A stretch of DNA of 64,000 bases, taken from assembly GCA_963832165.1 (NCBI GenBank), contig CAWHTE010000004.1, forward strand, positions 192,001-256,000, in the 5' to 3' direction. This DNA is from an uncultured delta proteobacterium. GTDB lineage: Bacteria > Myxococcota_A > UBA9160 > SMWR01. Positions 11,819 to 61,080 of the stretch are shown here, piece after piece; within the stretch, counting starts at the first letter, position 1; each line of letters opens with the position of its first letter. A program made the translations under genes and the position numbers. The notes beneath the pieces were generated by a model that saw nothing but the letters and a program-made list of their open reading frames with translations, ran no database searches and was not told the origin of the DNA.

Positions 11819-11822
<4 letters not shown>
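11180..11822 (+). CDS. clpP: ATP-dependent Clp protease proteolytic subunit (frameshift near 11278)
   Basis: [32 protein letters not shown] then [28 protein letters not shown] in the next frame. Confidence 0.95.
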
Positions 11823-13067
<1,245 letters not shown>

Positions 13068-18647: not shown

Positions 18648-18759
18648 GGCGGCTCCGCGCCCCTGTCTTCGCGGGCGCCATTTTGCTAATCGGACCCGCG
18701 TGTCGGAGAATCCCGGCGCTGCGCGCGGTGATCGTCACTGCGCGCACAACGAAGGAATT

Positions 18760-18836
18760 GGGGCGGTAGTTCAATCGGTTAGAGCACCGGCCTGTCACGC
18801 CGGAAGTTGCGGGTTCGAGTCCCGTCCGCCCCGCCA
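18760..18836 (+). tRNA. tRNA-Asp(GTC)
   Basis: Acceptor GGGGCGG/CCGCCCC, anticodon arm CCGGC-CT-GTC-AC-GCCGG, CCA. Confidence 0.97.
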
Positions 18837-18873
18837 TTCCCACTGGCTGCCACCCATCCAACAAAAGGAATCC

Positions 18874-20007
18874 ATGCGCAGAACAGCACTCGGAGTTTCG
18901 ATCGTTTCGTGTGTCTTCGCGCTTGCATGCGCGACCCCGGTCGTGAAACCCGTCGATGTCCAGCCGGTCACGCCTGGCCCCGGCGAGACCGTTGCGGTCG
19001 ACCAGTCGATCGTGATCGCCGACGTCTCGGGATCGATCGGTCGCAGGGACAATTTCCCGGGTGAGAAGGCGCTGGTCCAGTCGCTCGTGTCGTCGATGCC
19101 GGCGGGCAAGTACGAAGCGAGCGCGATCGCGTTCGGCGGCGTCAAGCGCGAGGTGCATCCGCTCGCGGCGTTCGATCGCGCGGGACTGGCCGATCACGCG
19201 GGCGACATCACCTACCTCAGCGAGGGCACGCCGCTCCATCAGGTGATTGCGGAGGCGGGCGCTTCGCTCAAGGGCAAGAGCGATCACGCCGCGATCACGG
19301 TGATCTCCGACGGCCATCCCACCGACGTCGTCGGCCGCCTGGTGGCGCAGGAGCTCACGCTCGATGCCGCGAAGGCGGTCGCGAAGGGCTATCAGGGGAA
19401 GGTCTGCTTCCACACGATCCAGGTCGGCTCCGATGGGGATGGCGCCGAGTTCCTGAAGAAGCTCTCGAACACGACCGACTGCGGGTCGCATCGCGCGGCG
19501 AGCTCGCTCCAGACCGCGGCGGCGATCCAGGGCTTCCAGCGCGACGTCTATTTCGCGAGCGCGCCCGTGGCGAGAGCTGCAGTGGACGGCGACGACGATG
19601 AAGACGGCGTGCTCAACAGCAAGGACCGGTGCCCGAACACTCCGAAGCTCGTGAGAGTGGATGACCGCGGGTGCTGGGCTTCGAGGGACGTGTACTTCGA
19701 GACGAACAGCGCCGAAATCGACGAAAACTCCAAGGAGCTGCTCCGGACGCTCGGCGTGGCGGTGCTCAAGGCGAACCCCGATCTGCGCGTTCGCGTCGAC
19801 GGGCATACCGACGCGCGCGGCAGCGACGCCTACAACCAGCAGCTCTCGGAGAAGCGCGCGGCGGCGGTGCGGAAGTTCTTCATCGACGAGGGGATCGACG
19901 GGGGTCGCCTCGAATCGCGCGGCTTCGGCGAGTCCTCGCCGGCCGCCCCGAACGACACCCCCGAGAACATGCGTCTGAATCGGCGCGTCGAGTTCACGCC
20001 GCTCTAG
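18874..20007 (+). CDS. Lipoprotein with VWA domain, TSP3-like Ca-binding linker and OmpA C-terminal peptidoglycan-binding domain
   Basis: Lipobox LAC; DVSGS MIDAS, GTPL, ISDG; DDDEDGVLNSKDRCPNTP; GHTDARGSDAYNQQLSEKRA, NRRVEF. Confidence 0.88.
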   Translation: MRRTALGVSIVSCVFALACATPVVKPVDVQPVTPGPGETVAVDQSIVIADVSGSIGRRDNFPGEKALVQSLVSSMPAGKYEASAIAFGGVKREVHPLAAFDRAGLADHAGDITYLSEGTPLHQVIAEAGASLKGKSDHAAITVISDGHPTDVVGRLVAQELTLDAAKAVAKGYQGKVCFHTIQVGSDGDGAEFLKKLSNTTDCGSHRAASSLQTAAAIQGFQRDVYFASAPVARAAVDGDDDEDGVLNSKDRCPNTPKLVRVDDRGCWASRDVYFETNSAEIDENSKELLRTLGVAVLKANPDLRVRVDGHTDARGSDAYNQQLSEKRAAAVRKFFIDEGIDGGRLESRGFGESSPAAPNDTPENMRLNRRVEFTPL

Positions 20008-23696: not shown

Positions 23697-24809
23697 ATGT
23701 TCGATCGCAAACGGGGTGTGGCGGCGGCGACGGCAGCGCTCGCGTTGCTCGTGCCGGTGGTTGCGGCGGGTCAGGGGAAGCTCGTCTCGAAGGGCGACAC
23801 GATCCATGGACACGTGGCCGATGTCACGGCCGAGGGCGTGGTCTTCGAGCCGGCCCAGGGCAAGGGTTCGATCGCGGTCAAATGGGCCGACGTGGAGTCG
23901 CTCGAGACCGACGGACCCTACACGGTGCTGCACGGCGACGCGGGCGAGGCGCGCGGGCGGATCCTCGGGTTCGAGGGGGGGGAGTTCCTGCTGATCGGCG
24001 ATGGGCCCGCGAACGCCGAACGCGTCGACGTCGGCGCGCTCGTCCATGCCTACGACGAGGGCAAGGCGACGGGCTCGTGGGTGGAGCGCATGCGCGGCCG
24101 GCTGCGCTTCTGGAAGGCCACGCTCGACGCGGCCGCGGCCTACACGGACAGCACCACCGACACGACCGCCGGAACCCTGGGCATGCTCATCGATCGCAAG
24201 AAGGCGCCCACCCACTTCCTGTTCGAAGCCGGCGCGCACTACGCGGACGAGAACGAGCAGCACGAGGAGCGCACGATCACCGAGAACACGCTGTTCGCGT
24301 TCGGACGCGGCGAGCTCGACCTGACCGAACACGTCTACACCTACGCGTCGTCGCGCTTCACCCACGACAATTCGCAGCACCTGGCGCTGCGCTCGGAGCC
24401 GCGCGCGGGCGCGGGCTATCACTTCATCAAGAGCAAGACGCGCAACTTCTCCACGGACGTCGGTCTCGCCTGGATCTCCGAGTCCTACTTCGGCGACGAG
24501 TTCATTGCGGTCGGGAACGACAGGGCGCGCGGTCGCAACGACTTCTGGGCCATCGCGTTCGGTACCCAGGCCGATGCCGTGCTGCCGTACGGGTCGCTCT
24601 GGCGGGCCCGCGCGGAGTACCTGCCCGCAGTCGACGACTGGCAGAACGAGTACCTCGCGCGCGCCGAGACCTCGCTGGACATGCCGATGCTGCAATGGCT
24701 GGCCTTCCGGCTCGCGTTCTCGGACGAATACGACAACACGCCCGCCCCGGGCGCACAGCACAACAAGTTCGTCACCACGGCCGGCTTCGCGATCCGCTTC
24801 ATCCCCTGA
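23697..24809 (+). CDS. DUF481-like outer-membrane beta-barrel protein
   Basis: Signal peptide, GDTIHGHV N-domain, alternating beta strands, GAGYHF, YDNTPAPG, terminal aromatic. Confidence 0.7.
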   Translation: MFDRKRGVAAATAALALLVPVVAAGQGKLVSKGDTIHGHVADVTAEGVVFEPAQGKGSIAVKWADVESLETDGPYTVLHGDAGEARGRILGFEGGEFLLIGDGPANAERVDVGALVHAYDEGKATGSWVERMRGRLRFWKATLDAAAAYTDSTTDTTAGTLGMLIDRKKAPTHFLFEAGAHYADENEQHEERTITENTLFAFGRGELDLTEHVYTYASSRFTHDNSQHLALRSEPRAGAGYHFIKSKTRNFSTDVGLAWISESYFGDEFIAVGNDRARGRNDFWAIAFGTQADAVLPYGSLWRARAEYLPAVDDWQNEYLARAETSLDMPMLQWLAFRLAFSDEYDNTPAPGAQHNKFVTTAGFAIRFIP

Positions 24810-24925: not shown

Positions 24926-25342
24926 ATGCGCGACGACGCGAGCCCGAGCGGCGACCGTTCCGCGGGACCCCACGGCGATGGCTTCGAGCGGTATACGGTG
25001 AGCTTGATCGTGGTCTCCGGTCCCTTGACCGGTGAAGAGCACGTGGTGGAGCGACCGCGATGGGTGATCGGACGCGGGCCCGGCGTGGATGCCGCGTTCA
25101 CGGACCCCGAGATGTCACAGCACCACCTGCGTATCGAGTTCGAGCGCGGTCGCTTCCAGGTGATCGACCTCGACAGCACGAACGGGACCCGCGTGAACGG
25201 CACCGGGATCTCTTCCGCGGAGCTCGCACACGGCGACCGCATCCAAGCGGGCGCCCAGGTGTTCCAGATCCTGATCGAGAAGAACGCGCGGACCTGGCAG
25301 GGCCGGTCAGCGAGCGGCGACGTCGTTCCGCGGATCCAGTGA
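24926..25342 (+). CDS. Stand-alone FHA-domain protein
   Basis: VIGRG, MSQHH, DLDSTNGTRVNG, LAHGDRIQAG. Confidence 0.88.
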   Translation: MRDDASPSGDRSAGPHGDGFERYTVSLIVVSGPLTGEEHVVERPRWVIGRGPGVDAAFTDPEMSQHHLRIEFERGRFQVIDLDSTNGTRVNGTGISSAELAHGDRIQAGAQVFQILIEKNARTWQGRSASGDVVPRIQ

Positions 25343-26044
25343 CCAGGCCTGGAACGAGACCTGCCGCGCGTGCACGATGTAGCGCCACGGCGCGTCACCC
25401 ACGTGATAGAACGGGTAGCAGGTCACGAGCGTGAGCGTGCGATCGGCCGTGGGCGCGAGCACGTCGGTGCGCTTCGGGTCCACGATCTGGATCTTGTCGA
25501 CGCGATAGCGCACGACGCCGTCGAGTGTCGTGATCGACATTTCGTCGCCGGTCTCGAGGTGTCGCAGGCCGCGGAAGTAGCCGTCGCGATGACCCGCGAT
25601 CCCGAGATTCCCAGTCTCTCCGGGGCGAGCGGTCCCGGGGACGTGCCCGACTGCGCGATCGAGCGTGCTGTCTTCGGTGCCCTCGAGCACCATCACCGAG
25701 AGATCGGCGTCGGGAATCTCCAGACGCCCGATCGCGTTCACGGGCTTCTCGAGGCTCGCTTCGTACTTGGCGACGCGCGCGGGCGACCACTCGCGCGGGT
25801 TGGGCGGCGACTCCTCGTGGATCTGCCGCTGGACGCGCGCCTGGATCCGCGCGCGCACCGCCTCGTCGAACGCCGCGCTCTCGCGGCTCTGGGTCAGCGA
25901 TGCCCGCGCGCAGGCGCCGCCATAAGCGATCAGACACGCACCACCCGCGAGCGCAAGCGTGTACTCCGCGGCGCGCAAGGCAGTGCGCAGCGCGCGGTGG
26001 TGCACGGTCGTGGATCGCGGTGTGGTGGCGTCAGAGTCGCTCAA
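25307..26044 (-). CDS. Sortase (class D-like)
   Basis: N-terminal TM, GRLEIP, VLEGT, IAGHRDGYFRGL (His), TLTLVTCYPF (Cys), WRYIV (Arg). Confidence 0.93.
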   Translation of the reverse strand: MSDSDATTPRSTTVHHRALRTALRAAEYTLALAGGACLIAYGGACARASLTQSRESAAFDEAVRARIQARVQRQIHEESPPNPREWSPARVAKYEASLEKPVNAIGRLEIPDADLSVMVLEGTEDSTLDRAVGHVPGTARPGETGNLGIAGHRDGYFRGLRHLETGDEMSITTLDGVVRYRVDKIQIVDPKRTDVLAPTADRTLTLVTCYPFYHVGDAPWRYIVHARQVSFQAWSLDPRNDVAAR

Positions 26045-26098
26045 GACGGCTCTCCTGGAGCGCGAGCAGGTGGACCCGCTCGCGCGGGTCCACCGGGA

Positions 26099-26350
26099 CT
26101 AGCGGATCCGGTTTCGCAGTACGTGCAGAGCGCCAGCACCCGCGAGAGCCGCCAGGCCCGAGAGGCCCAGCGCGGGCAGCGAGCTACCGGTCTTGGGCAG
26201 CTCGCGCACTTCCGGCTCGTAGACGGGCTCGGGCGCGGGCGGCGCCGGCTCGGCCACGGGCGGGGTCGGCGGCGGAGTCTCCGGCTCGGGAGAGCTCGCA
26301 CACGCAACCAGGTTGAATACGAGTCCAAGGATCAAAAGCAAACGCACCAT
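26099..26350 (-). CDS. 83-aa Pro-rich lipoprotein with C-terminal LPKTG sorting signal
   Basis: GAGG SD; MVRLLLILGLVFNLVAC lipobox; PEPETPPPTPPVAEPAPPAPEP; LPKTG + hydrophobic LPALGLSGLAALAGAGALHVL + basic RNRIR. Confidence 0.85.
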   Translation of the reverse strand: MVRLLLILGLVFNLVACASSPEPETPPPTPPVAEPAPPAPEPVYEPEVRELPKTGSSLPALGLSGLAALAGAGALHVLRNRIR

Positions 26351-26390
26351 GAAATGCCTCACTAGGGGGGTTTAGAACGCGGGCAATCAT

Positions 26391-27754: not shown

Positions 27755-27788
27755 GCGCAGAGCCTAGCAACGTGTGATTCTTTCCGGC

Positions 27789-28650
27789 GTGAAGCTCCAG
27801 ACGGTCGGAATCTGCGTCAAGCGCGATCAGCCGCAGGTGGCCGAACGCGTCGCCGCGCTCGAGGAGTGGCTGCACGATCACGGCGTGGAGGTGCTGCTCG
27901 ACCGGGAAGCCGCGCGCTGGCTGGGCCGTCAGGGCACCGAGCTCGACGATCTCGCGGCGCGCGTCGATCTCCTGATCGTGCTCGGCGGCGACGGCACGCT
28001 GCTCTCCGCCGCCCGCGCGATCGGCGAGCGCGCAGGTGCCGCTCCTGGGCGTGAACCTGGGCACGCTCGGCTTCCTCGCGGAGACCTCGACCGACGATCT
28101 CTACGACGCGCTCGAACACGCGTTCGCGGGGCGTCTGATCGTCGCGCCGCGCATGCGCCTCGACGTCGAGGTCGAGCGCGACGGTCAAGTCGTCGGGCGC
28201 TATCTCGCGCTGAACGACGCCGTGATCGGAAAGAGCGCGCTCTCGCGCATGATCGACCTCGAGACGCGCGCCGATGGCGCCTTCGTCACCACCTATCATT
28301 CCGACGGGTTGATCGTCGCCACGCCGACCGGATCGTCGGCCTACTCGCTATCGGCGGGCGGTCCCCTGCTGTTGCCCGAAGACGAGGCGATCGTACTCAC
28401 GCCGATCTGTCCGCACACGCTGACGCAGCGGCCTCTCGTGCTTCCGGATCGCTACCGGATCGAGATCCTCGTGCTCGACACGCGCGGCGGCGACGTGCAC
28501 CTGACCGTGGACGGCCAGGTGGGGGTCGTGATCGAGCAGCGCGATCGCGTCACTGTGACGCGTTCGGCTCATCCCGCGCGACTGCTCGTGTCGCCGCATC
28601 GCAGCGCCTTCGCCGTGATGCGCGAGAAGCTCCGCTGGGGCGAGCGTTGA
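27789..28650 (+). CDS. nadK: NAD kinase (frameshift near 28030)
   Basis: LGGDGTLL; then GVNLGTLGFL, ALND, DGLIVATPTGSSAYSLSAGG, VDGQ. Confidence 0.93.
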
Positions 28651-30350
28651 TCGAGACGCTGCGCATCGAACAGCTCGCGATCGTGGAAGAGGCGGCGCTC
28701 GAGTTCGCGCCGGGCCTCAACGTGCTGACCGGAGAGACCGGCGCGGGAAAATCGATCGTGCTCGGCGCGCTGACACTGCTCGCGGGCGGCCGCGCACTCG
28801 CCCGGGCGGTGCGCGATGGCGCCGAGCAGGCGGTGGTCGAAGCGGTGTTCCGCACCGACGCGCTGCCAGAGCTCGAGCGCGCGCTCGAAGAGCGCGGCCT
28901 CAGCGGCGATGCGCACGAGCTGATCGTGCGCCGCGCGCTCGCGAAGGGCGGGCGCAGCCGCGCGTGGGTGGCGGGCCAGCTCACGCCGATCGCGGCGCTC
29001 GCGGAGCTGTTCGCGGATCGGATCGAGATCTCGAGTCAGCACGACTCCCAGTCGCTGCTGCATGCGCCGCGCCATGCGGAGCTGCTCGATCGCTGGGCCG
29101 GGCTCGAGCCGACGCGCGATCGCGTCGCCGCCGAGGTGGCCGGGCAGCGCGAGATCGCCGCCGAGCTCGCGCGGCTGCGCGCGGCCACGCGCGACCGCGA
29201 GCAGCGCCGCGACTTCCTGGTGTTCCAGGTGCGCGAGATCGACGAGGCGAAGCTCGCGCCGGGCGAGCTCGAATCGCTGCTGGCGCTGCGCTCGCGGCTC
29301 GCGCACGTGGATCGGATCGGCCGCGAGGGCGGCGCCGCGCTCGCGCGCCTGATCGGAGATCCGAGTCAGCCCGACGCGGCGGGCGCGGGCGACCTGATCG
29401 CCGACGCCGCGCGCGCGCTCACGGCCTTGTCGGCGCTCGACCCCGAGCTCGCGCCGTTGGCCGATCGGCTCGCGGGCGCGCTCGCCGAGGTGCGCGATCT
29501 CGGTGCGGATCTCGAGCGGCGTCTCGACGGGCTCGAGGCGGATCCAGGCCGGCTCGCCCAGGTGGAGGAGCGCCTGCACCGGATCGAGTCTCTGCGCCGC
29601 AAGTACGGAGCGAGTGTCGAGGAGGTGCTCGCGCACCGCGATGCGGCTGCGCGCGAGCTCGACGCGCTCGAAGGCGCGGACACGCGCGAGGCCGAGCTCG
29701 AGTCGGAACGCGCGGCCGGTCGCAAGCGGCTCGAGGCCGCGGCGGCGGAGCTCTCGCGCGGGCGCAAGCGCGCCGCCGCGGAGCTCGCGCGCGCGGTCGT
29801 GCCGATGCTGCGCGAGCTCGCGATGCCCGAGGCGCGCTTCGAGGTCGCGCTGCCGCCCGCACCGGCGCCCGAGGGACTGCCGTGCGGAGCGGGCGGCGCC
29901 GAGGCGCCGGAGTTTCTGTTCTGCGCGAACAAGGGCGAGCGCATGCAACCGCTGCGCGACATCGCGAGCGGCGGTGAGCTCTCGCGCGCATTCCTCGCGC
30001 TCAAGCAGGCGCTGCGCGAGCAGAGCGCGGGCATGGTGCTCGTGTTCGACGAGGTGGACGCGGGAGTCGGCGGCGAGGCGGCGGAGCGCGTCGGGCAGCG
30101 GCTCGCCGAGCTCGCCGATCACCACCAGGTGCTCTGCATAACGCACCTGCCGCAGATCGCCGCCTACGCGCACCGTCACTTCCGCGTGTCGAAGCAGACG
30201 AGCGCGCGCCGCACGGGCGTGGCGATCGAGCGCGTGGAGGGCGACGCGCGCGTGGACGAGATCGCGCGCATGGCGAGCGGCGATCGCGCGGGTGACGCCG
30301 CGCGCGAGTACGCGCGCGAGCTGATCGCCACCCGAGGGGATCGACCCTAA
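28647..30350 (+). CDS. recN: DNA repair protein RecN
   Basis: TGETGAGKS, ASGGELSR, FDEVDAG, CITHLPQIAA; TTGA overlap with nadK. Confidence 0.95.
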   Translation: MIETLRIEQLAIVEEAALEFAPGLNVLTGETGAGKSIVLGALTLLAGGRALARAVRDGAEQAVVEAVFRTDALPELERALEERGLSGDAHELIVRRALAKGGRSRAWVAGQLTPIAALAELFADRIEISSQHDSQSLLHAPRHAELLDRWAGLEPTRDRVAAEVAGQREIAAELARLRAATRDREQRRDFLVFQVREIDEAKLAPGELESLLALRSRLAHVDRIGREGGAALARLIGDPSQPDAAGAGDLIADAARALTALSALDPELAPLADRLAGALAEVRDLGADLERRLDGLEADPGRLAQVEERLHRIESLRRKYGASVEEVLAHRDAAARELDALEGADTREAELESERAAGRKRLEAAAAELSRGRKRAAAELARAVVPMLRELAMPEARFEVALPPAPAPEGLPCGAGGAEAPEFLFCANKGERMQPLRDIASGGELSRAFLALKQALREQSAGMVLVFDEVDAGVGGEAAERVGQRLAELADHHQVLCITHLPQIAAYAHRHFRVSKQTSARRTGVAIERVEGDARVDEIARMASGDRAGDAAREYARELIATRGDRP

Positions 30351-54907: not shown

Positions 54908-55151
54908 TACTAGTTCGACGAACTAACGTTACCCCCGGTGGGTAGACCTTTTCCCGCGCGGTGCTCCAAATGCGTAGGTCGGGCTCCTAACGGTCGCTGT
55001 ACGATCCTCCGCTCGCGGGGACGTGGCTCGGCTCTTGCAGCCTTTACGCCGCAAGGGAAGGGCGCGACGCGTTACATCGACGCGCCGCTGTGGCTCCGTT
55101 CCACCGTCGAGCTGTCGAGCCGCGCAGGCCTTGCGCAGGCGAGGAGTACGG

Positions 55152-56072
55152 ATGCGAGTCTGGCTGCGGTCTGGATGGACCTGTGCGATGGGTGCGATCG
55201 TCGGCGCGAGCTGGATCGCGAGCTCCGCCGGGGCGGCGTCGCTGACCTACGGCGTGGTCGCTGCGGAGAGCGATCTGAGCCTGCGCTTGAACGCGCAGGC
55301 CTTCATGGACGTGACGCCCGACCTCACCGAGGGCCTGCCCGGCGGCGACGATTTCCCCTACACCGCGGCCCTGAACTCGGTCTCGAACACGACGCCCAGT
55401 CCCTCGTCCCACGTGGTCGCGGACGTGGGCCTTCCGGGCGGGTTCGACAACGGCGCCCACGGCATCTCGTTCTCGGAGCTGGTGATCCAGGCGCTGGCCC
55501 CGAGCAACCTGAGCGGGTTCGGATTCGTTTCGGTGCCGCTCGACCTCACCGGCTCGTCGAACCAGCTCGTGCTCTTCGATGTGGTCGTGTCCTACTTGAG
55601 CATCGTTCTGGACAGTCCCCTCACGTCGTCGCTGACGCCGACGGGGAACGCGAATGAATGGCTCTGGGCGGGGCTCGCCAACGTGACCATCAGCGGAGAG
55701 GTCGGGCCCTACGTGAATCCATTCGGCGTCACGCTCGGGATCTTCCCGTTCAGCCAGCAGGCGACGATCCCGCTGGCCGGGACCTTCTCGGGAATTCCGA
55801 CCGGCACCCAGATCACGGTCGGGATCCCGCTCGGCGCGCTCGAGGACGAGCCGCTCCCGCTCCCTCCGATCGAAGTGAGTCTGCCGCTCGACCTGCTCCA
55901 GCTCGGGCTCATCACGGGCACTTTCAAGCTGACCGACCTGACGCTCGTCGAGTTCTCGTCCGACGTCGTCTACCGGAACGTGACGCCGATCCCGGAGCCG
56001 GGCACGGCACTGCTCCTGGGTCTCGGCCTCGCGGGGCTCGCGGTGCGCCGCATCCACAGCCTCGGGCGCTGA
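55152..56072 (+). CDS. PEP-CTERM protein of unknown function
   Basis: Signal peptide; beta-rich, Lys/Arg-poor body; PIPEPGTALLLGLGLAGLAVRR. Confidence 0.85.
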   Translation: MRVWLRSGWTCAMGAIVGASWIASSAGAASLTYGVVAAESDLSLRLNAQAFMDVTPDLTEGLPGGDDFPYTAALNSVSNTTPSPSSHVVADVGLPGGFDNGAHGISFSELVIQALAPSNLSGFGFVSVPLDLTGSSNQLVLFDVVVSYLSIVLDSPLTSSLTPTGNANEWLWAGLANVTISGEVGPYVNPFGVTLGIFPFSQQATIPLAGTFSGIPTGTQITVGIPLGALEDEPLPLPPIEVSLPLDLLQLGLITGTFKLTDLTLVEFSSDVVYRNVTPIPEPGTALLLGLGLAGLAVRRIHSLGR

Positions 56073-58399: not shown

Positions 58400-59536
58400 A
58401 TGATCATGAGCACCCAATACGACTACGATCCGGAACTCGAGGATCGGTTGGCTTCCCGGCTGATGGACGTGCTGATCCGAGCCGGGTTGATCCTCGCGAT
58501 GGTGCTGCTGTGCTTCCAGGTGTTCTCGCCGTTCCTGCACCTCATGATCTGGGCGCTGATCCTGGCCGTCACCCTGTATCCGACGCAGTTGTGGCTCGCG
58601 GCCAGGCTCGGGAGACGGCAGGGCCTTGCGGCAACGCTGATCGTGCTGCTCGGGGCGATGGTGGCCGTGGTGCCGACGGCCGCGCTCATGAACTCGCTCG
58701 GCGACTCGGTGCAAGGGCTCATCAAGGGCATCCAGGACAACACGCTCGCGGTGCCGCCTCCGCGAGAGGGCGTCGAGAACTGGCCTCTCGTCGGTGACAA
58801 GCTGCACGCGTTCTGGACCCGGGCCCACACCGACCTGCCGGCACTCGTGCAGAGCATGCAGCCGAAGATCGGCAACCTCGCGAAGGCAGCGCTCGGCTTC
58901 GTGGCCAGCATCGGCGGGGGATTGCTGCAGTTTCTCGGCTCCCTCGTCGTCGCCGGCATCATGATGGCCTTCGGTGAGTCCGGCGCGCGCGGTATCCGGT
59001 CGATCTTCGAGAAGATCATCGCCGGCGGTCGCGGGGGGGAGTTCGCCGACCTGTCGACCGCGACCATCCGTGCGGTCGCCAAGGGCGTGCTCGGCGTCGC
59101 CTTCATCCAGGCGATGATCGTCGGTGTCTGCCTGCTCGTCGCGGGCGTGCCCTGGGCGGGCGTGCTCGCGGTGATCGTGCTCGTGCTCGGCATCGCCCAG
59201 GTGCCGGCCGTACTCGTCACGCTGCCGGCGATCGCGTGGATCTGGTCGAGCGGCAGCTACGGAACCGGCGCGGCCGTCCTCTACACCGTGCTGCTGCTGG
59301 TCGCGGGCATGGCCGACAACGTGCTGAAACCGCTGATGCTAGGCCGTGGCGTGGACGCGCCGATGCCCGTCATTCTCATCGGCGCCCTCGGCGGCATGGC
59401 GACGGCCGGCATCCTCGGCATGTTCGTCGGCGCCACGCTCCTGGCGCTCGGCTACCAGATCTTCATGGGCTGGGTCGCGACCGGCCCGGATGCACCGCGA
59501 TCCGGGTTGGAAGGCGGTACTCCGTCGGCCGGCTGA
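58400..59536 (+). CDS. AI-2E family transporter
   Basis: IWALILAVTLYP, TIRAVAKGVLGVAFIQ, DNVLKPLMLGRG, GMFVGATLL. Confidence 0.9.
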   Translation: MIMSTQYDYDPELEDRLASRLMDVLIRAGLILAMVLLCFQVFSPFLHLMIWALILAVTLYPTQLWLAARLGRRQGLAATLIVLLGAMVAVVPTAALMNSLGDSVQGLIKGIQDNTLAVPPPREGVENWPLVGDKLHAFWTRAHTDLPALVQSMQPKIGNLAKAALGFVASIGGGLLQFLGSLVVAGIMMAFGESGARGIRSIFEKIIAGGRGGEFADLSTATIRAVAKGVLGVAFIQAMIVGVCLLVAGVPWAGVLAVIVLVLGIAQVPAVLVTLPAIAWIWSSGSYGTGAAVLYTVLLLVAGMADNVLKPLMLGRGVDAPMPVILIGALGGMATAGILGMFVGATLLALGYQIFMGWVATGPDAPRSGLEGGTPSAG

Positions 59537-59541
59537 AACGC

Positions 59542-61080
59542 ATGCCGGACGTCTCGCCGAAGCGTTGGCGAAGGCGCGCGCTCGCCGTTCTGCCGCTGCT
59601 CCTCGGCGCGTGCACCGCCGTCGGCCCCGACTTCGCGCGTCCCGGCGTGCCTTGGCTCGAGGACTGGTCGCCCGACGCGCTCCGGGTGGCGCAAGAGGAG
59701 GCGCTCACGCAGAGGCCCGTGCAGGTCGACCAGTGGTGGCGCGAGTTCGGCGATGCGGTGCTCGAGAAGCTCGTGGAGGAGGCGCAGCGTCTCAATCCCG
59801 GCGTACGCACCGCGGGGCTTCGCATCCTCGAGGCGCGCGCGGAGCTCGGGATCGCCGGCAGCAACCTCTACCCTCAAGTGCAGGAGCTCCGCGGCGACGG
59901 CCTGTGGGTCGGGACCGAGCAGAGCGACGGGCCGGATCGGGACTTCTGGACCGGCAGCGCCGGGCTCGACGTCATCTGGGAGCTGGACTTCTGGGGCAAG
60001 TTCCGCCGCGGCATCGAGGCAGCGGATGCCGAGTACTTCGCGAGCATCGCCGAGTACGACGATCTCCAGGTGCTCGTCGCTTCCGAGGCCGCGAGCTTCT
60101 ATGCGAGCATCCGCACCGTCGAGCTGCGCCTCCGCATTGCGCACGAGAACGCCGCGCTGCAGAAGCGCAGCCTCGAGATCACCGAGCGCCTGTTTCACAG
60201 CGGCAACGAGTCCGAGCTCGACCTGCAGCAGGCCCGCACGCTCTACCTGAGCACCCTGGCGACGATCCCCGAGCTCGAGGCCAGCCTGTATCAGACCCAG
60301 AACGCGCTGGCGATCCTGCTCGGACGACCGCCGGGCCCGCTGCCCGAGATGGACACCGGGCGAGAGCACATCCCCGACGCAGATTTCGGAATGATCGCCG
60401 AGCTGCCGGCTCACCTGCTGCGCCGGCGGCCGGACGTGCGCGAGGCCGAGTCGCAGCTGGCCGCGCAGTCGGCCCGGATCGGGGTCAGCAAGGCGGATCT
60501 CTATCCGGCCATCCTGGTCGGCGGCTCGCTCGTTTTCTCGGCGACCTCCCTGATGGGATCGTCATACGCTCTCGACTGGGCGGTCGGCCCCGCCTTCGTC
60601 TGGAACCTCGACTACAACCGGCTCACGAATCAGGTGCTCGTGCAGGACGCGCGCTTCCAGCAGCTCTTCGAGCAGTACCACGACACCGTGCTTCGCGCGG
60701 CCCGGGAGCTGGAGGATGCTGCCATCGGCTTCGCCCAACGCCGCGCGCAGGTCGCGATCCTCGAGGAATCGGTGCAGGCGGCGCGCCGCTCCCTCGACAT
60801 CGCCGACGTGCAATACCGCGAAGGGCTCGTGGACTTCCAGCGGGTGCTCGACTCGCAGCGCGCGCTGTTCAGCCAGCAGGAGCGTCTCGCGACGACACGG
60901 GGAGGTGTCGCGCAGAGCCTGATCGACCTCTACAAAGCGATGGGCGGCGGCTGGCAGCCAGGCCGCTCGATGCCGATCGTCGACGACGAGACTCGCGCCG
61001 AGATGGTCGATCGCAGCCGCTGGAAGCGGCTGCTCGACGCTCCACTCCCGGCCGCCGACGATTCCCAACCGCCTCCGTAG
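59542..61080 (+). CDS. NodT/TolC-family outer-membrane efflux lipoprotein
   Basis: LGACTAVGPDF lipobox, WELDFWG, LLRRRPDVREAE, LYKAMGGGW. Confidence 0.93.
   Translation: MPDVSPKRWRRRALAVLPLLLGACTAVGPDFARPGVPWLEDWSPDALRVAQEEALTQRPVQVDQWWREFGDAVLEKLVEEAQRLNPGVRTAGLRILEARAELGIAGSNLYPQVQELRGDGLWVGTEQSDGPDRDFWTGSAGLDVIWELDFWGKFRRGIEAADAEYFASIAEYDDLQVLVASEAASFYASIRTVELRLRIAHENAALQKRSLEITERLFHSGNESELDLQQARTLYLSTLATIPELEASLYQTQNALAILLGRPPGPLPEMDTGREHIPDADFGMIAELPAHLLRRRPDVREAESQLAAQSARIGVSKADLYPAILVGGSLVFSATSLMGSSYALDWAVGPAFVWNLDYNRLTNQVLVQDARFQQLFEQYHDTVLRAARELEDAAIGFAQRRAQVAILEESVQAARRSLDIADVQYREGLVDFQRVLDSQRALFSQQERLATTRGGVAQSLIDLYKAMGGGWQPGRSMPIVDDETRAEMVDRSRWKRLLDAPLPAADDSQPPP

Follow-up and report, generated by a model that had tools for sequence, protein, structure and literature searches.

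A two-gene module, encoding a small putative lipoprotein with a C-terminal sorting signal and the sortase predicted to process it, was identified on the minus strand of the window, the 64,000-nucleotide stretch of DNA analysed here, and is real, conserved and apparently undescribed. Its host is a member of the Myxococcota, a diderm with LPS (LpxC is encoded in the genome). We consider it an even question whether the module yields a sortase-made covalent tether between outer membrane and peptidoglycan, one that would be like Braun's lipoprotein (Lpp) in function and unrelated to it in sequence and chemistry. The gene pair, its motifs, their conservation and the exclusive pairing of the two genes were observed directly, and from these we infer the steps of the tether mechanism. 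The claim of an earlier note on this DNA, that no described system has this architecture, agrees with a literature search that found no description, though a sortase survey may mention it; passages of PMC13721041, PMC11980579 and 10.1101/2023.06.07.544157 say nothing of the lipobox-linker-LPxTG layout.

The mini-protein gene (P0001, 83 aa; 26099..26350, minus strand, as are all features of the module) is preceded at 7-10 nt by a putative ribosome-binding site, GAGG (26357..26360), and purine-rich stretches like it stand ahead of the gene in most of eight orthologues compared. The product begins with a lipoprotein-type signal peptide ending in LVA (residues 1-16; 26303..26350), followed by Cys17 (26300..26302), the predicted lipid attachment site, a Pro/Glu/Ala-rich linker (residues 18-50; 26201..26299), the sorting motif LPKTG (residues 51-55; 26186..26200) and a Gly/Ala-rich hydrophobic helix with a basic tail ending in RNRIR (residues 56-83; 26102..26185). 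Motif, helix and basic tail together constitute an LPXTG sorting signal, and the protein scored above the curated cut-offs of both TIGR01167 (24.3 bits against 15.9) and PF00746 (26.8 bits against 20). The reading frame, ribosome-binding site and profile scores thus bear out the layout given in the earlier note. The tail helix is only marginally hydrophobic. A basic n-region, short h-region and lipobox Cys place the N-terminus among Sec/SPII bacterial lipoproteins by motif and by conservation, Ala-1 and Cys being invariant in 8/8 orthologues and the Cys in all 38 members of a larger alignment, as are the Pro and Thr of the sorting motif; lipidation of Cys17 is predicted. The stretch from Cys17 to Thr54 comprises 38 residues, 37% of them Pro. 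An AlphaFold model contains helices at residues 2-17 and 58-82 and nothing structured between, in keeping with the earlier description of a 38-residue mature part devoid of any folded domain. That description had also called the linker a Pro-rich rod: Pro-rich it is, whereas rod is an overstatement, since no structure is predicted there and about 12 nm, reached if every residue adds the 0.31 nm of a polyproline-II chain, is an upper bound only.

The codon-position GC content of the mini-protein frame is 0.77/0.55/0.80. In a six-frame scan of the 5.5-Mb genome with a profile of the tail, the mini-protein was the sole strong match (50.4 bits; next 9.6), which argues against a chance reading frame, and among five candidate tails retrieved by a motif scan of the genome it was the one convincing case. 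Just past its stop codon lies an 11-bp GC hairpin with a GCGA loop (26069..26094; z = -3.05). Hairpins with z <= -2.7 were present at this position in 6/16 carrier loci, and none of the control windows fell below -2. The hairpin is possibly an mRNA stabiliser or attenuator and, together with the TTG start codon of the sortase, would fit the production of more substrate than enzyme. Neither a sigma-70 promoter nor a U-tailed terminator was found when looked for. Two soil metatranscriptome runs contained only 9-14% of the sequence words, and a single 256-nt contig with one difference spans 25935-26190; it was set aside as evidence because contigs give neither level, strand nor co-transcription.

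The second gene (P0002, 245 aa; 25307..26044) opens with its TTG codon 54 nt past the mini-protein stop and encodes a class-D-like sortase, which scored 109.3 bits against PF04203 (cut-off 26.6). The genome, 89% complete, encodes no second sortase, and this enzyme and the mini-protein are its sole sortase/substrate pair. Catalytic residues His152, Cys209 and Arg221 (25382..25591) are invariant in 16/16 aligned clade members and align by profile with those of the Bacillus anthracis class D sortase 2LN7. The His, the Cys of the TLxTC motif and the Arg, together with the PF04203 match, identify a sortase of peptidase family C60, as the earlier note had proposed for an intact enzyme 54 nt downstream on the same strand; cleavage and transpeptidation are predicted on these grounds. 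Over 36 nt at its 3' end (25307-25342) the gene overlaps a convergent gene for an FHA-domain protein.

The N-terminal hydrophobic helix of the sortase (Glu27-Cys45; 25910..25966) bears a clade-specific pair of cysteines, C-x3-Y-x3-C, a new feature that the earlier note had missed. Both cysteines occur in 17/17 clade rows of the sortase alignment. Among the 156 other rows, the first position is Cys in 11 and the second, Cys45, in none, most having Arg there. Cys45 lies at the helix end behind small residues, a lipobox-like context, which suggests that the two proteins of the module may each be a lipoprotein and travel together. Either the clade sortase became a lipoprotein along with its substrate or the helix stays uncleaved and serves as an anchor with a Cys pair, the latter suggested by the equal invariance in the clade of Glu27, Gly34 and Cys37 upstream; the sortase model shows a single helix, residues 12-76, running to the barrel. 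If the sortase is a lipoprotein, it and its substrate could work at the outer membrane, with mature peptidoglycan as their target.

A protein search with the mini-protein returned 149 homologues at E<=0.001, of which 120 were listed. The arrangement signal-Cys-linker-LPxT[AG]-tail was found in 118 of these 120; of the two exceptions one has a variant motif and the other lacks the N-terminus. The earlier note had made conservation of the Cys a test of its proposal, and the residue is present in every listed homologue whose N-terminus is intact (119/119). It had also named LPKTG as the motif, which is so in this protein, whereas family-wide LPKTA is the commoner form (LPKTA 69, LPKTG 39, others 10, among 118). 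Linkers in the family average 36% Pro and 16% Glu with a median net charge of -4. As 80/118 contain no Lys, an acceptor lysine of the Lpp or pilin type is not a family feature. No conserved linker sequence was found in the 38-member alignment, where the ends are conserved and the middle drifts. Mature length is 33-50 aa (median 41) among the listed homologues and 36-61 in the copies found in genomes. Diverse members spread twofold in length, from 29 to 61 aa, which counts against a tether, and the searches favour similar lengths. Source records assign the homologues to Myxococcota or Myxococcales MAGs and describe them no further than as LPXTG anchor or hypothetical proteins. In the ESM Atlas, the cluster nearest to P0001 has 66 members and is assigned to Myxococcota at 0.97; the nearest clusters for P0157, a divergent representative, were Myxococcota at 0.90 and Acidobacteriota at 0.81. 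On this sequence evidence the mini-protein belongs to a conserved family and does not appear to be a remnant.

The drifting linker bears on one further reading, in which the sortase serves solely as a protease and frees a membrane-anchored or vesicle-borne lipopeptide as a signal, decoy or surface brush. The marginal hydrophobicity of the tail would suit release, and some Myxococcota lipoproteins are described as reaching the surface (PMC3222651). Against this, there is no conserved linker sequence able to carry a message, no receptor gene lies nearby, the sortase retains every motif of a transpeptidase, and Ala at +7, the M. xanthus export mark (PMC3222651), occurs in 2/118 homologues only; we regard release as very unlikely. 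Weak tail hydrophobicity was also considered as a trait of the clade, the family median being 3.09 (37 tails) against 0.65 for 61 outside tails on an insertion scale. This was rejected as largely a lineage effect, since ten tails of other substrates in the same order gave values of -1.7 to 2.9, mostly above 2.

A sortase profile run over all 193 genomes of the order matched 62. Seventeen genomes, each with one match, stand apart at 301 bits or more (next best 190), and their sortases form one side of a branch with SH-aLRT support of 98 in a quick tree of 57 rows, from which five rows without the motif pattern were left out. The 17 carriers represent one clade and not 17 events, since kin are not independent. 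The mini-protein gene lies directly upstream of the clade sortase in 15/17 genomes. For the remaining two the contig stops at the sortase start, and one has a mini-protein at the edge of another contig. The reverse search with the mini-protein matched 20 of the 193 genomes, 16 of them strongly (E <= 1.7e-12) and all of these among the carriers, giving 16/17 genomes with the sortase clade against 0/176 others; in the four weak cases the match covers one half of the mini-protein only. No strong match was found outside the order among 401 phylum genomes. TIGR01167 gave six matches over 16 carriers, four being the mini-protein and two the helix part only. A metagenome scan yielded 80 loci, of which two belong to the sortase clade, both incomplete at the contig, and no complete lipobox mini-protein. 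The mini-protein has been kept across two families and seven genera, down to about 46% identity. Its patchy occurrence, in 17/193 order genomes, makes the module accessory and dispensable in the order.

The neighbouring rarA, FHA and DUF481 genes are kept within the genus only, and no third gene common to the pair across genera stood out among the neighbours listed. This weighs on a lipid-anchor adaptor, in which the sortase would join the lipopeptide to a free amine of another protein or glycan, or to the mini-protein itself, and so provide a membrane anchor. The acceptor of a diderm sortase has been called unknown (PMC13712847) and sortases can use protein amines, as in pilus assembly (PMC13721041). 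An adaptor nevertheless seems quite unlikely, given the lack of an accompanying third gene among the neighbours listed, the replacement of the Lys of LPKT in 10/118 homologues, and the block that Lnt should impose on the mini-protein's own N-terminal amine.

Beyond the clade, the next-closest sortases are mostly from Acidobacteriota and adjoin substrates with the same tail. Nearly all these outside substrates have a non-lipoprotein signal peptide, a folded domain and a Pro/Ala stalk: of 77 outside loci, 63 have such a tail and 62 of the 63 have no lipobox mini-protein. The single exception (L066) encodes one with a 46-residue Thr/Ala/Ser-rich linker, four close homologues and a sortase outside the clade. 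At this locus (L066:1370-3522) one Acidobacteria sortase gene follows two substrate genes, one for a secreted protein with a fold and one for the lipobox mini-protein. As the L066 sortase lacks the Cys45-type anchor Cys, the Cys pair is not needed for every lipobox mini-protein. Loci L026-L101 represent a large Acidobacteriota family of sortase substrates, 200-300 aa long with folded domains; in six of the longer representatives no Pfam domain besides the anchor exceeded its cut-off. At L092:2869-4491 sortase and substrate share one 540-codon open frame, which may be a natural fusion or an assembly error.

In a profile search of 1.84 billion representatives, 132 of the best 150 proteins were new. 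These included 30 lipobox mini-proteins by rule and 29 on inspection, with linkers of 29-60 aa, about 12 domainless LPxTA forms without a lipobox, four long proteins called as having a lipobox, convincingly so in P0147 alone, 27 long secreted proteins and 58 fragments. The lipobox mini-protein layout therefore recurs with unrelated linkers (about 29/132 new representatives, and L066). The earlier note had held that homologues normally carrying a folded domain would make this copy a deletion remnant. A search for longer forms returned nine proteins with a folded domain, none with a lipobox, and P0147 is the one lipobox-plus-domain form among the best 150 representatives. That form, and the service of the nearest outside sortases to folded-domain substrates with the same tail (62/63 loci), are what a remnant has in its favour. 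Deletion alone would not yield the mini-protein, because the folded relatives lack a lipobox, and a protein intact in two families and seven genera is hardly decaying; on these sequences the remnant reading is largely refuted and we consider it extremely improbable.

A phylum search centred on Acidobacteria, with two unpublished genomes left out, gave 38 loci in which the sole lipobox mini-protein was that of the centre genome. Five of them (L297, L302 and L303, also L299 and L300) encode secreted LPxTA mini-proteins that are acidic and have neither a folded domain nor a lipobox, in three directly before a sortase and in two with no sortase nearby. These lipid-free Acidobacteriota proteins are an undescribed sister class, and domainless sortase substrates in diderms thus occur both with and without a predicted lipid. 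Their presence beside sortases is the main result against the idea that the lipid end is the whole purpose, and suggests that a bare peptide is worth anchoring without lipid. They likewise favour a role in decoration of the peptidoglycan, in which mDAP amines would be capped, or the wall coated, by an acidic disordered peptide that the lipid only retains or delivers. The acidity of the linkers fits such a role, and small LPXTG proteins of WxL loci are known (NF053819, a weak match at 19.9 against a cut-off of 47; ElrB, PMC4522977). Within the clade, the Cys is never lost (119/119), the sortases gained a Cys of their own, and a lipid that stays on makes the molecule a tether regardless; decoration as the purpose is accordingly rated unlikely.

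The window contains genes for OmpA (18700-20004), a TolC-type OEP (59236-61077) and a DUF481 protein (23697-24809), which, with LpxC in the genome, fit the outer membrane deduced in the earlier note. The genome encodes Lnt, two LolA-family proteins, a LolCE match below cut-off, one Pal over cut-off and seven YkuD proteins; FemAB, Lpp (PF04728) and LolB were looked for and none was found. The genome's MurE carries DNPR, the mDAP signature motif. NAD kinase (window 27774-30350) is split over two frames, the first of which runs into RecN, ClpX is similarly divided (window 11819-13064), and the copies of lnt and lolCE on contig C3 are split as well; all are likely assembly frameshifts. A PEP-CTERM protein is encoded at 55023-56069 (plus strand) of the window and a tail elsewhere in the genome (G000 C4:690411-691712, minus strand) resembles IPTL-CTERM, so that the genome has exosortase-type sorting as well as the sortase.

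The idea that the mini-protein replaces Pal or the L,D-transpeptidases was considered and rejected, as Pal-like matches occur in 17/17 carriers (eight over cut-off) and the seven YkuD genes are retained here. The N-terminal half of the mini-protein matches the Pal tether in two genomes. In 13 carriers, Pal tethers of 39-50 aa co-vary with mini-protein length (Spearman 0.61, p 0.027, uncorrected for kinship; 0.50, p=0.10, without the longest case). Pal tethers of the order share a short TGSEF-like motif within a variable linker (L155-L168). The strict pairing, mDAP-type MurE, Lol machinery and Pal-like tether lengths would fit a covalent spacer between membrane and peptidoglycan and support the analogy with Lpp drawn in the earlier note in part; retention of Pal and L,D-transpeptidases, the restriction to 17/193 genomes and the lipid-free versions speak against it.

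In the tether mechanism, Sec would export the mini-protein precursor, with both ends held in the inner membrane. Lgt, LspA and Lnt would lipidate and free Cys17, and the sortase would cut LPKT|G(A) and join the carbonyl of Thr to meso-DAP, in lipid II or in the sacculus, through the free amine of its side chain. LolCDE and LolA would deliver the lipidated end to the outer membrane, into its inner leaflet, wall attachment preceding or following this transport. The product would be a flexible spacer of 30-60 residues with no chemistry other than that of its two ends. By analogy, mDAP is the probable natural acceptor, since in B. anthracis the class D enzyme SrtC attaches LPNTA proteins to DAP (PMC8225981).

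The residues beside the lipobox Cys also bear on a variant with the same chemistry, in which the lipidated end never leaves the inner membrane and the product is a covalent tether or spacer from there to the peptidoglycan. Asp at +2 is the retention signal of E. coli. In M. xanthus, Lys at +2 is the inner-membrane signature (PMC3222651). The +2 residue is Ala, Thr, Ser or Gly in 118/118 homologues and never Asp or Lys, so that a known retention residue occurs in 0/118; this and the likeness of the N-terminus to Pal fit an outer-membrane location, the sorting rules being those of other species. In E. coli, Lpp that is linked to the wall while bound to the inner membrane is toxic, which also counts against the variant. 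In its favour, no Lol step would be needed after wall attachment, LolB was not found in the genome, covalent attachment to the inner membrane has a precedent in Dickeya OutB (PMC12274547), and both topologies have been raised for the Shewanella sortase target (PMC13712847). Overall we think an inner-membrane location rather unlikely.

To our knowledge no small LPXTG protein of the WxL type carries a lipobox. Such proteins (EF0750/EF2685, NF053819; ElrB, PMC4522977) share with the mini-protein a signal peptide, a short low-complexity middle and an LPXTG tail, but they belong to monoderms as parts of WxL complexes; no WxL gene was present among the neighbours scanned, and the mini-protein falls below the cut-off of NF053819. 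Like Lpp, LimB and the beta-barrel tethers, the mini-protein is small and lipid-anchored with a covalent mDAP link, its own status being predicted. The attachment of those tethers and of OutB is attributed to L,D-transpeptidases (10.1101/2021.02.21.432140, PMC11841132, PMC12274547), in contrast to the dedicated sortase proposed here, and tether length could set membrane spacing (10.1101/2021.02.21.432140, PMC12274547). It differs from Lpp in further respects. Neither the mini-protein nor the genome has a PF04728 match, which places it outside the Lpp family. Lpp is a coiled coil with a C-terminal Lys acceptor, whereas the mini-protein is predicted to be disordered, with no helix in its mature part and a cleavable C-terminal helix in its precursor. 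The polarity of the bond would also be reversed, the mini-protein giving the carbonyl and mDAP the amine, where Lpp gives the amine of its Lys. Pal likewise has a lipobox followed by a flexible tether of some 40 residues ending at the peptidoglycan (TIGR02802), but its hold on the wall is non-covalent and made by a folded domain, and Pal is retained alongside the mini-protein.

Among sortases, class D enzymes are the nearest structures (B. anthracis SrtC 2LN7, C. perfringens SrtD 4D70) and share the His/Cys/Arg motifs, an LPxTA-type signal, a dedicated gene pair and, as predicted for the enzyme here, a DAP-type acceptor (PMC8225981). P0002 scores below both class D cut-offs (NF058671, 134.3 against 140; NF033746, 123 against 165), so that class D is the nearest class without including it; the diderm host, the predicted lipidation of a domainless substrate and the extra Cys pair in the anchor also set it apart. 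Class GN sortases (TIGR03784) and their VIT-vWA targets (TIGR03788), such as Shewanella SO2196/SO2195, likewise pair one sortase with one substrate in a diderm. P0002 lies outside that class, with 95.5 against a cut-off of 158.25 and a separate branch of the tree, and the class GN target is large, folded and without a lipobox, in contrast to the mini-protein. The Shewanella module provided the first phenotype of a diderm sortase, in envelope integrity, with either tether topology speculated for its folded target and the anchoring site given as unknown in 2026 (PMC13712847). A second, more distant sortase type is present in many genomes of the order (L013-L017, L125-L131) and at several loci adjoins long LPxTA proteins that, by resemblance, recall class GN VIT-vWA targets. 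One Listeria protein has been predicted to be both a lipoprotein and an LPXTG protein (PMC3415414). M. xanthus has no Lpp, and its loosely coupled outer membrane shows a response when Lpp is supplied (PMC12132463).

Sortases are regarded as belonging to bacteria with a single membrane. The present module offers the simplest test case in a diderm, with two short genes and a 38-residue product readable by mass spectrometry, and expression hosts exist in E. coli without lpp and in M. xanthus (PMC12132463). More tentatively, with somewhat less than an even chance of being right, we propose that it represents a second, independently evolved covalent fastening of the outer membrane, arisen repeatedly in diderms, in which a sortase turned lipoprotein would attach a domainless lipopeptide to mDAP as a ruler, the length of which would help to set the distance between outer membrane and wall. 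If the tether is real, it would constitute convergent evolution of Braun's lipoprotein with the bond chemistry reversed, would settle the question of the acceptor for at least one diderm sortase, and would provide a portable, length-tunable tether for envelope mechanics.
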